The position numbers and the translations under genes were made by a program. Source: an uncultured Solirubrobacteraceae bacterium (GTDB lineage: Bacteria; Actinomycetota; Thermoleophilia; Solirubrobacterales; Solirubrobacteraceae). From it: 64,000 nt of DNA. Under the pieces are notes generated by a model. The model was given only the letters and a program-made list of their open reading frames with translations. It did no database searches and had not been told where the DNA came from. The stretch's first letter is position 1, and every line of letters starts with the position of its first letter. Positions 25,416-43,650 of the stretch are shown here, piece after piece. The stretch is from assembly GCA_963845635.1 (NCBI GenBank), contig CAWJSW010000007.1:83655-147654 (forward strand), given 5' to 3'.

Positions 25416-25511
25416 TGCGCCCGGCGGGAATCGAACCCGCGGCCTGCGGCTTGAAAGACCGCTGCTCTTTGGCTCCCCGAAGAGAACCGTTGACCACTGA
25501 GCTACGGGCGC
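25416..25511 (-). tRNA. Atypical tRNA with anticodon UUC (Glu) and a hairpin inserted in the D-loop; CCA not encoded
   Basis: Acceptor stem GCGCCCG/CGGGCGC plus A73; U8 A9; D-stem GCUC/GAGC with a 31-nt loop; anticodon arm GCGGU-CUUUCAA-GCCGC; variable loop AGGCC; T-arm GCGGG-UUCGAUU-CCCGC. Confidence 0.85.
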
Positions 25512-25524
25512 GCTGTGCGGACCC

Positions 25525-25530
25525 ATAATA
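25525..25530 (-). promoter_or_regulatory. -10 box of the tRNA gene
   Basis: TATTAT ends 13 nt upstream of tRNA position 1, in otherwise GC-rich DNA. Confidence 0.6.
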
Positions 25531-43567: not shown

Positions 43568-43650
43568 CCAGACTGCAAGGGCAAACCCGTCGCGAGGCGG
43601 GGGCGCAAAGTCAGGGGTCTCGCCGAGACGGCCCGGCTGCCAGCCAAGCA
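43568..43650 (+). ncRNA. c-di-GMP-I (GEMM-I) riboswitch
   Basis: AAGGGCAAA-CCCGUC-GCGA-GGCGGG-GGCGCAAAG-UCAGGGGUCU...GAGAC-GGCCCGGCUGCC matches the GEMM-I core (GNRA-capped P2, GCAAAG junction, P3); AAGGAGG follows immediately. Confidence 0.88.

Follow-up and report, generated by a model that had tools for sequence, protein, structure and literature searches.

What would allow a tRNA gene to read the glutamate codon GAA when its body is not of the glutamate type and its D-loop carries a complete hairpin? The question is raised by a gene in a 64,000-nucleotide stretch of DNA (the window) from an uncultured Solirubrobacteraceae bacterium (assembly GCA_963845635.1, contig CAWJSW010000007.1, positions 83,655 to 147,654, forward strand). 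A first description, made from the letters of the window alone and referred to below as the original prediction, noted a UUC anticodon on a non-Glu body with a UUCG-capped hairpin in the D-loop, and offered four readings: a specialised GAA decoder, a mischarged tRNA, a tRNA that needs processing, or a non-ribosomal tRNA-like RNA. The analysis reported here makes it likely that this gene, hereafter the hairpin tRNA, is the functional GAA-reading tRNA-Glu of its lineage, built on a body of the tRNA-Lys(UUU) type. In the sampled genomes that carry it, genes for exported proteins are rich in GAA.

Structure of the gene

The locus at 25511→25416 of the window is a real tRNA gene. The Rfam family RF00005 matches it at 66.6 bits (gathering score 29) over model positions 1-71, and fitting the full-length tRNA model requires a 25-nt insertion in the D-loop. 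ARAGORN finds the gene as well and cannot type it, reporting 'tRNA-???' with a false four-base anticodon and guessing Ser or Leu in the genome run, while a custom covariance model, R1, scores it at 117.6 bits. The 5' half reads GCGCCCG UA GCUC AGUGGUCAAC-GGUUCUC-UUCG-GGGAGCC-AAA GAGC and the 3' half A GCGGU CUUUCAA GCCGC AGGCC GCGGG UUCGAUU CCCGC CGGGCGC A.

In most respects this is an ordinary cloverleaf. A 7-bp acceptor stem, a 4-bp D-stem, a 5-bp anticodon stem, U33 and a T-arm are present, the core is complete (U8, A14, G15/C48, G18G19, UUCGA T-loop), every stem is paired, and 99.6% of cells are paired for the whole structure across 30 sequences. The D-loop is the part that departs from the norm: it measures 31 nt where about 7-11 nt is ordinary, and the extra arm stands between G19-UCAAC and AAA-G22. 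The intact core, the long D-loop with its 7-bp UUCG-capped stem and the UUC anticodon can all be read in the minus strand as the original prediction had stated, and the same holds for the identity positions it listed (C2:G71, C11:G24, C13:G22, G46, a 5-nt variable loop; A73 is present) and for its TATTAT box. The features are collected in Table 1.

Table 1. Features of the hairpin tRNA gene, in window coordinates
Feature	Position	Strand	Basis
tRNA gene, 96 nt, anticodon UUC, Lys-like body, D-loop arm, no encoded CCA	25416..25511	-	Rfam, ARAGORN, custom model R1
Extra arm, 7-bp stem GGUUCUC/GGGAGCC with UUCG tetraloop	25471..25488	-	covariation, fold
D-loop, 31 nt, keeps A14, G15, G18, G19, A21	25468..25498	-	invariant columns of alignment A1
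Anticodon UUC (reads GAA), loop CUUUCAA with U33 and A37	25453..25455	-	sequence
T-arm GCGGG-UUCGAUU-CCCGC	25424..25440	-	Rfam alignment; 3 of 5 pairs covary
-10-like box TATTAT, 13 nt upstream of tRNA position 1	25525..25530	-	sequence

A generic σ70 consensus scan and a terminator scan at the gene called neither a promoter nor a terminator. TANNNT boxes are found upstream of many orthologues at varying distances, and 50 of 126 distinct upstream sequences hold none in the interval scanned. The isolated arm folds at −8.7 kcal/mol. The free-energy minimum pairs part of the D-loop otherwise (−46.9 versus −43.9 kcal/mol for the form with the 7-bp hairpin) and engages G18/G19; this alternative fold was rejected in favour of the 7-bp hairpin, which covariation favours.

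Covariation of the arm

Of 25 genomes of the same genus, 23 contain the gene in full (96 nt) at 88-100% identity, and a 16-base D-loop pattern retrieved at least 120 stretches from public genomes, nearly all of them metagenome-assembled genomes (MAGs) of uncultured Solirubrobacterales. The 136 hairpin-tRNA copies that were parsed reduce to 35 distinct sequences, and alignment A1 comprises 30 distinct 96-nt members. The flanks of the hairpin, AGUGGUCAAC and AAA, are invariant in A1, as is the UUC anticodon loop apart from C37 in two members.

The search for the hairpin in related genomes, which the original prediction had suggested, thus found it, and found it changing as a helix. Compensatory double changes affect five of the seven hairpin pairs in the 30 distinct orthologues, pairing in the hairpin holds in 98.6% of cells, and it drops to 36-53% when the partners are shifted by one to three columns. 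Every variable helix of the gene shows compensatory changes, and the covariation of the whole structure was reached by none of 500 shuffles. The stem occurs as GGUUCUC/GGGAGCC, GGGACUC/GGGUUCC, GGGUCCU/GGGGCCC, GCUGCUU/GAGUGGC and GGCCUCU/GGAGGCC, and the loop as UUCG, UACG, UCCG, UAAC, UCAC and GCAA, among others, with an insert length of 17-19 nt in chromosomal UUC genes and a G-C base to the hairpin. Stem covariation across these 30 sequences indicates that the arm is under structural selection, the alternative to decay that the original prediction had favoured.

Body type and the search for other GAA readers

When the insert is left out, the body matches three tRNA-Lys(UUU) genes of the order at 84%, 81% and 79% identity and Arg(UCU) at 79%, but Glu tRNAs at only 60-67%. 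The tRNA-Lys(UUU) of one family has an identical acceptor stem, A73 and the GGUCA D-loop. Of the E. coli-type Glu set (U2:A71, U11:A24, U13:G22··A46, no nucleotide 47) the hairpin tRNA has none, and the canonical Glu tRNAs of the order carry a 4-nt variable loop. The body was therefore aptly described as not Glu-like, its closest relatives being tRNA-Lys(UUU) at 81-84%, followed by Arg(UCU), and the anticodon loop as one base from that of Lys UUU: A73 and U34U35 are those of tRNA-Lys(UUU), but C36 takes the place of U36. From these alignments, the simplest history would be a Lys-type gene that underwent a U36→C change and gained an arm.

The source genome (4.17 Mb in 16 contigs, 69% GC, 93% complete) contains 49 Rfam tRNA matches. 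ARAGORN and Rfam together recover all standard anticodons except Gly(CCC) and a canonical-body Glu(UUC). A canonical tRNA-Glu(CUC) lies on contig C12, and a BLAST search of the source genome with four canonical Glu(UUC) sequences from sister taxa returned this CUC gene only. The hairpin tRNA is therefore the only credible GAA reader found in the source genome, where canonical tRNA-Glu(UUC) is absent.

The same picture is seen in relatives. Canonical-body Glu tRNAs were recovered in 36 of 41 related genomes, and their anticodon is CUC except in one tRNA that has an 8-nt anticodon loop. A body-independent UUC pattern, run on 61 genomes of the genus and on 20 with a variant hairpin, found essentially the hairpin type only; of these 20, the GluRS tree places 14 in a second clade. 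One MAG carries a canonical gene on a 3-kb contig, which is probably contamination. Most of 44 sister genera in the same family have a canonical-type match with the 4-nt variable loop typical of tRNA-Glu, and in four sister-genus loci that were fetched the canonical gene adjoins Lys(UUU) and Val(UAC). The original prediction had named, as grounds for giving up its view, the case in which all ordinary tRNA-Glu genes of the lineage share this body and insert. All UUC tRNAs seen do share both, but the CUC isoacceptor is canonical.

A second UUC tRNA of the source genome, at C8:437860-437932 (-), has a Gln-like body (U1:A72) and the loop CGUUCAA; it was rejected as a GAA reader for its G33, its score of only 46 bits and its lack of conservation in relatives. 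A related copy with anticodon-stem mismatches is present in one other genome (G018, L186/L312). Other ARAGORN 'tRNAs' of 83-98 nt in the source genome are GC-rich coding sequence missing from the Rfam list, and were discarded as false positives.

Two further oddities of tRNA-Glu(UUC) and tRNA-Glu(CUC) were noted in relatives. At locus L307 (genome G179, C1:1881800-1882020), a second D-loop-insert tRNA(UUC) of 100 nt occurs in a genome that also has the standard hairpin gene; it has a different body (GCUGGCG…) and a different hairpin, CACCCGC-CAAG-GCGGGUG. The gene with the 8-nt anticodon loop (L177, genome G009, C8:36439-36512) is a canonical tRNA-Glu(CUC) with the loop CUUCUCAC, to which ARAGORN assigns a four-base anticodon; either a sequencing error or a frameshift-type tRNA could account for this.

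The meaning of GAA and the charging enzyme

GAA accounts for 9.6 per 1000 codons and 18% of Glu codons in the source genome. Within the genus, it pairs mostly with GAA or GAG in orthologue alignments; against outgroups with the canonical tRNA, it aligns chiefly with GAG. Its non-Glu partners (D, Q, A, S, G) are those of GAG, with no enrichment of Lys or Arg. The glycerol kinase gene next door, with 39 GAG and no GAA, was dropped as a test of GAA meaning, and AtpD and EF-G were used instead. Five of the six GAA codons of AtpD fall on Glu residues of the β chain in a structure that we take to be a thermophilic-Bacillus-type ATP synthase, including those in ETGIKV, MAEYFRD and FVAEQFTG. For EF-G, compared with a structure that is presumably of the Staphylococcus type, five of ten GAA codons fall on Glu (MDWMEQEQ and EYIPAV among the sites), and the other five align with D, D, Q, A and a gap. 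The presence of GAA at invariant Glu positions and its exchange with GAG argue that GAA means glutamate and that the hairpin tRNA delivers it, and they speak against a mischarged tRNA. Positional conservation of GAA (odds ratio versus GAG of 19-25 within genes) was considered as a sign of recoding and rejected: the ratios of AAA, CAA and GTA are raised too, and gene-class usage explains most of the effect.

A synthetase dedicated to the hairpin tRNA, another idea of the original prediction, did not emerge from a search covering PF00749, which found one GluRS-family gene in the source genome. The GluRS of the hairpin clades shows no insertion and no change in length, and this enzyme presumably charges the hairpin tRNA. 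A special elongation factor was not found either: the source genome has one EF-Tu, along with EF-G, IF2, LepA, two CysN-like genes and a TypA-like gene, and no SelB-like paralogue. One column of the GluRS alignment, near the C-terminal motif EVYQPLRVA (the source genome's GluRS gene lies at C14:1197621-1198988 (-)), holds Tyr in all 18 of 18 sequences from hairpin genomes, which represent both clades, and in 1 of 9 others, and Phe in 8 of 9 canonical genomes; the statistics are weak, and the F→Y change may be convergent.

GAA in genes for exported proteins

The codon that this tRNA reads is unevenly distributed among genes. In the source genome, the per-gene GAA share has a long upper shoulder: 271 of 2303 genes use GAA for at least 50% of their Glu codons (pooled 69%), and the remaining genes pool at about 10%. 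The housekeeping genes rpoB, rpoC, fusA, tuf, dnaK, atpAD, recA and clpB are about 90% GAG, whereas the GAA-rich set includes FlgK, a flagellin-like gene, a PBP transpeptidase, and pilin-like, RCC1-repeat, collagen-repeat and adhesin-domain proteins, many with signal peptides. An N-terminal hydrophobic segment is found in 63% of genes with at least 50% GAA versus 9% of genes with less than 20% (odds ratio 18, p = 3e-83). Other codon families are used alike in the GAA-rich and the remaining genes, except for AAA (0.32 versus 0.11).

The enrichment is even along the gene and present in frame only (0.69 versus 0.09; out of frame 0.38/0.25 and 0.53/0.49). An mRNA motif was accordingly rejected as its cause, since an effect confined to the reading frame is an effect on codons. 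Outgroup orthologues of the GAA-rich genes use GAG, as in one gene with 27 GAA and 24 GAG here versus 3 and 40 there. Across genomes, exported-protein genes are GAA-rich only in the sampled genomes that have the hairpin tRNA, and this in both clades (Table 2); per-gene GAA distributions agree.

Table 2. GAA share of Glu codons by tRNA-Glu(UUC) type and by predicted location of the protein
Genome	tRNA-Glu(UUC)	Exported-like	Cytoplasmic-like
G005 (this genus)	hairpin	0.70	0.18
G014 (this genus)	hairpin	0.42	0.12
G211 (second clade)	hairpin	0.58	0.12
G122 (family f1)	canonical	0.075	0.105
G025 (family f2)	canonical	0.158	0.163
G064 (family f4)	canonical	0.100	0.116

GAA is thus concentrated in a functional gene class, at 0.42-0.70 in exported-like versus 0.12-0.18 in cytoplasmic-like genes of hairpin genomes. 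It occurs in essential genes too, which makes it unlikely that the hairpin tRNA is dispensable. Among the readings of the original prediction, the specialised GAA decoder fits best, for the hairpin tRNA is the only credible UUC tRNA and GAA-rich exported genes are confined to the sampled hairpin lineages.

Distribution in chromosomes, phages and islands

The model R1 gives 117-119 bits on hairpin genes, and elsewhere its best scores, about 70 bits, are ordinary Lys/Arg tRNAs. By this measure, the genus is alone in being positive among 151 genomes (55 genera) of its GTDB order and among 301 genomes (105 genera) of its class. Variant-hairpin MAGs outside the genus form a GluRS-tree clade of 14 genomes (support 100/99) beside family f4, the sampled members of which lack the hairpin; the genus itself nests in family f1 (100/99). 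As placed by this tree, the hairpin design is in two separate Solirubrobacterales clades with canonical lineages between them, and transfer or repeated loss therefore has to be invoked.

Mobile DNA carries the design as well. Nine of eleven viral-contig matches are hairpin tRNAs (90-103 bits; anticodons UUC, CCU and UGC), two of them inside large phage tRNA arrays. Versions with the anticodons UGU, UUU (in three identical copies) and ACC, whose inserts measure 16-46 nt, lie in low-GC islands or multicopy elements. The viral loci with a hairpin tRNA show no GAA-specific codon preference. The chromosomal hairpin gene is single-copy and is adjoined by duplicates of its 3' half, from which it follows that islands integrate at this gene.

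These observations raise the possibility, to which we give limited credence, that a phage- or island-derived tRNA replaced the canonical gene because its arm shields it from a toxin that cleaves or modifies tRNA, to which canonical tRNA-Glu(UUC) would be sensitive. The hairpin tRNAs of viral contigs and phage arrays would fit such an origin, as would the paralogues with other anticodons in accessory DNA or in identical copies, the patchy distribution and the marks of integration beside the gene. On the other hand, no nuclease or toxin was identified, and a shield leaves unexplained why GAA is chosen in exported proteins specifically. A shield concerns origin and selective value, and can coexist with a functional Lys-bodied tRNA-Glu.

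Two side observations also concern mobile DNA. A viral contig with a UGC version (L430) and a MAG island with an ACC version (L051) have similar low-GC downstream sequence, …GCAGACAAT(T/C)GTGCGTTAACAC…, which suggests that they are the same kind of mobile element. In the source genome, partial duplicates of tRNA-Lys(CUU) (C11:219340-219412 / C11:223703-223784) and tRNA-Val(CAC) (C3:28929-29000 / C3:52795-52866) are separated from the intact genes by 4.3 kb and 24 kb and look like attachment-site scars of integrated elements.

Proposed history and role

We propose that a Lys-type tRNA acquired the U36→C shift and, at positions 20a/20b, where the D-loop is variable, a hairpin of 18 nt, and that the resulting tRNA then displaced the canonical gene, possibly through transfer from phages or genomic islands. 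The mature tRNA would have five arms, the hairpin being retained as one of them. An arm that emerges between G19 and A21, in the variable region of the D-loop, should by general tRNA structure project from the outer core, close to where the long variable arm of class II tRNAs begins, and the ribosome and EF-Tu would therefore tolerate it there. The single GluRS would charge the molecule mainly through its anticodon. Finally, the arm would give the tRNA some property that favours GAA on ribosomes making exported proteins; altered decoding speed, membrane-proximal availability and an arm-binding partner are candidates.

The last step can be carried further. The arm might define a second glutamate channel, in which ribosomes making exported proteins prefer the five-armed tRNA and GAA and GAG become 'export' and 'cytoplasmic' codons, the arrangement having evolved or been acquired twice. 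It could operate by membrane-proximal availability, by an arm-binding partner or by arm-dependent decoding kinetics coupled to export. We put this extension forward only tentatively and think it rather improbable as it stands.

The original prediction had allowed for a tRNA needing processing, and the hairpin could be an intervening sequence that is cut out, with or without re-ligation, to leave an ordinary-sized Lys-bodied tRNA(UUC). The D-loop does host non-canonical introns in archaeal and some eukaryotic tRNA genes, paralogues that carry other anticodons have inserts of 16 to 46 nt, and ARAGORN treats the gene as abnormal. The insert is, however, a plain 7-bp stem with a tetraloop and offers no bulge-helix-bulge; a search for the archaeal-type splicing endonuclease (PF01974) found none in the source genome, while its control matched four archaea; and known bacterial tRNA introns are self-splicing group I elements of about 200 nt or more in the anticodon loop. 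In chromosomal UUC genes, moreover, the insert is held at 17-19 nt between invariant flanks, as if it were structural in the mature RNA. Since there is no bulge-helix-bulge and no EndA homologue, and length and flanks are fixed, we infer that the arm is retained and judge its removal unlikely.

A functional Lys-bodied tRNA-Glu has several points to answer. Expression of the hairpin tRNA, retention of its arm and its charging are all deduced from sequence, and no mechanism connects the arm to exported proteins. The codon contrast sets four hairpin genomes, of which three entered the export-class test, against three canonical ones; each of the six comparison genomes was sampled over only 400 kb, stop-to-stop frames served as crude gene calls, and a hydrophobicity heuristic was used to predict export. 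Every genome is a MAG from an uncultured organism, and, with the source genome 93% complete, a canonical gene could be missing from a single one; the argument for the GAA reader rests on many genomes, several of them single contigs. Every E. coli tRNA-Glu identity element outside the anticodon is missing, so charging by GluRS is not a given. Phages and islands carry the same body with the anticodons UGC, CCU, ACC, UGU and UUU. AlaRS needs a G3:U70 pair, and the UGC variant lacks it and should not be charged by that enzyme, which leaves room for an identity independent of the anticodon.

The points on identity could be taken to mean that GAA is decoded ambiguously, with LysRS or another enzyme that recognises body and arm charging part of the pool and GAA sites of surface proteins being heterogeneous. 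The body is 81-84% identical to tRNA-Lys(UUU), with A73 and U34U35, it is joined to unrelated anticodons in phages, the Glu elements outside the anticodon are all missing, and GAA clusters in genes for surface and secreted proteins, which could better tolerate heterogeneity. Against this, GAA persists at Glu positions that are invariant and critical for function, its substitution partners show no excess of Lys or Arg, and the codon is not purged from cytoplasmic-like genes, where its share is 0.12-0.18 in hairpin and 0.105-0.163 in canonical genomes. We therefore regard ambiguous decoding as quite improbable. Least credible of all is a decaying or non-translational tRNA-like RNA with GAA read by something else, for although ARAGORN cannot type the gene and a second odd UUC tRNA is present at C8:437860-437932, the latter, with G33 and a score of only 46 bits, is not shared by relatives, the searches turned up no further UUC tRNA, the hairpin gene is conserved with compensatory changes in all variable helices, and about 1% of all codons (GAA, 9.6 per 1000) depend on it, which also makes the non-ribosomal role of the original prediction unlikely.

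Relation to known systems

The hairpin tRNA resembles canonical bacterial tRNA-Glu(UUC) in its anticodon with U33 and A37, in its apparent role as the sole GAA reader found, delivering Glu, and in having a single chromosomal copy that is also an integration site. It differs from the canonical tRNA in its sequence (60-67% identity), in C11:G24, C13:G22, G46 and A73, which are not the E. coli-type 'augmented D-helix', in a 5-nt rather than 4-nt variable loop and in the 18-nt D-loop hairpin. Solirubrobacterales tRNA-Lys(UUU), to which it is 79-84% identical without the insert, shares the same or nearly the same acceptor stem, A73, the GCUC/GAGC D-stem and the GGUCA motif; here, C36 and the D-loop arm make the difference, and GAA behaves as Glu.

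A fifth helical arm on a normal L-shaped core is also a feature of class II tRNAs (Leu, Ser, bacterial Tyr) and of tRNA-Sec, which show that the translation machinery can accept an extra arm. Their arm lies at 44-48, however, whereas that of the hairpin tRNA lies between G19 and A21 beside a 5-nt variable loop (AGGCC), and no special elongation factor was found with it. Non-canonical introns of archaeal and eukaryotic tRNA genes likewise interrupt the D-loop with extra bases, but the present gene is bacterial, has neither a bulge-helix-bulge nor an EndA-type match in its genome, and its insert covaries as a capped stem of fixed length. A bacterial group I tRNA intron is set apart by the size and place of the insert, 18-25 nt in the D-loop, and no other Rfam family matches the locus.

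Anticodon-shifted ('remoulded' or recruited) tRNA genes are known from mitochondria, from eukaryotic nuclear genomes and from an experiment in E. coli. There, as proposed here, a changed anticodon lets the body of one isotype take over decoding for a different amino acid, and the gene that did so before disappears. The hairpin tRNA differs in being found in free-living bacteria, with a new arm, in two clades and in phages, and in being coupled to a codon-usage change in one gene class. In codon usage the closest likeness is to tRNA-Leu(UAA) of Streptomyces, encoded by bldA, the sole reader of TTA, a codon concentrated in a functional gene class. GAA, unlike TTA, is not rare (18% of Glu codons) and is used in essential genes, and the bldA tRNA is structurally ordinary. 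The Streptomyces tRNA-ProA/ProRSx pair, cited in the original prediction, has a similar mismatch of anticodon and body, but no extra GluRS-family synthetase accompanies the hairpin tRNA and the meaning of the codon is unchanged.

The literature searched contained no published description of a bacterial D-loop arm and no report of a GAA-coded secretome in actinobacteria. A 2020 review of non-canonical tRNAs holds no class with a D-loop arm, and one preprint links AA-ending codons to secreted effectors in a fungus (10.1101/2025.11.10.687658), a loose parallel.

Few molecules are as conserved in shape as elongator tRNAs. If a natural bacterial tRNA has a fifth arm in its D-loop and is the only reader found for a sense codon used about once in every hundred, the ribosome, EF-Tu, RNase P and a synthetase tolerate a wider range of shapes than was known. 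It comes with what looks like a natural Lys→Glu isotype switch that displaced the ancestral gene. If the link to codon usage is causal, a structural change in one tRNA can re-sort codon choice by protein destination, which would bear on the coupling of translation to secretion; a second glutamate channel, if real, would mean that altered tRNA architecture had divided a bacterial proteome at the level of codons. The D-loop insert also explains why standard tRNA finders mis-type or miss the gene in Solirubrobacterales MAGs and phages, and the hairpin scaffold could serve in the design of orthogonal tRNAs.

Minor observations

A second mismatch of anticodon and body is present in the source genome. 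At C10:88346-88418 (-) lies a 73-nt tRNA with anticodon UAA (70 bits) and a short variable loop that is not of the Leu type, and a normal long-arm tRNA-Leu(UAA) is found on contig C13. TTA is the rarest of the tabulated codons, at 0.24 per 1000. The regions C6:17369-24234 and C7:201441-208312 (reverse-strand offsets) each encode a DnaK (639 aa), the codon counts being the same in both, and a ClpB (896 and 898 aa), suggesting a duplicated region or overlapping contig ends in the assembly. Elsewhere in the window, positions 43570-43644 (+) match the cyclic di-GMP-I riboswitch aptamer at 54.6 bits (gathering score 35).

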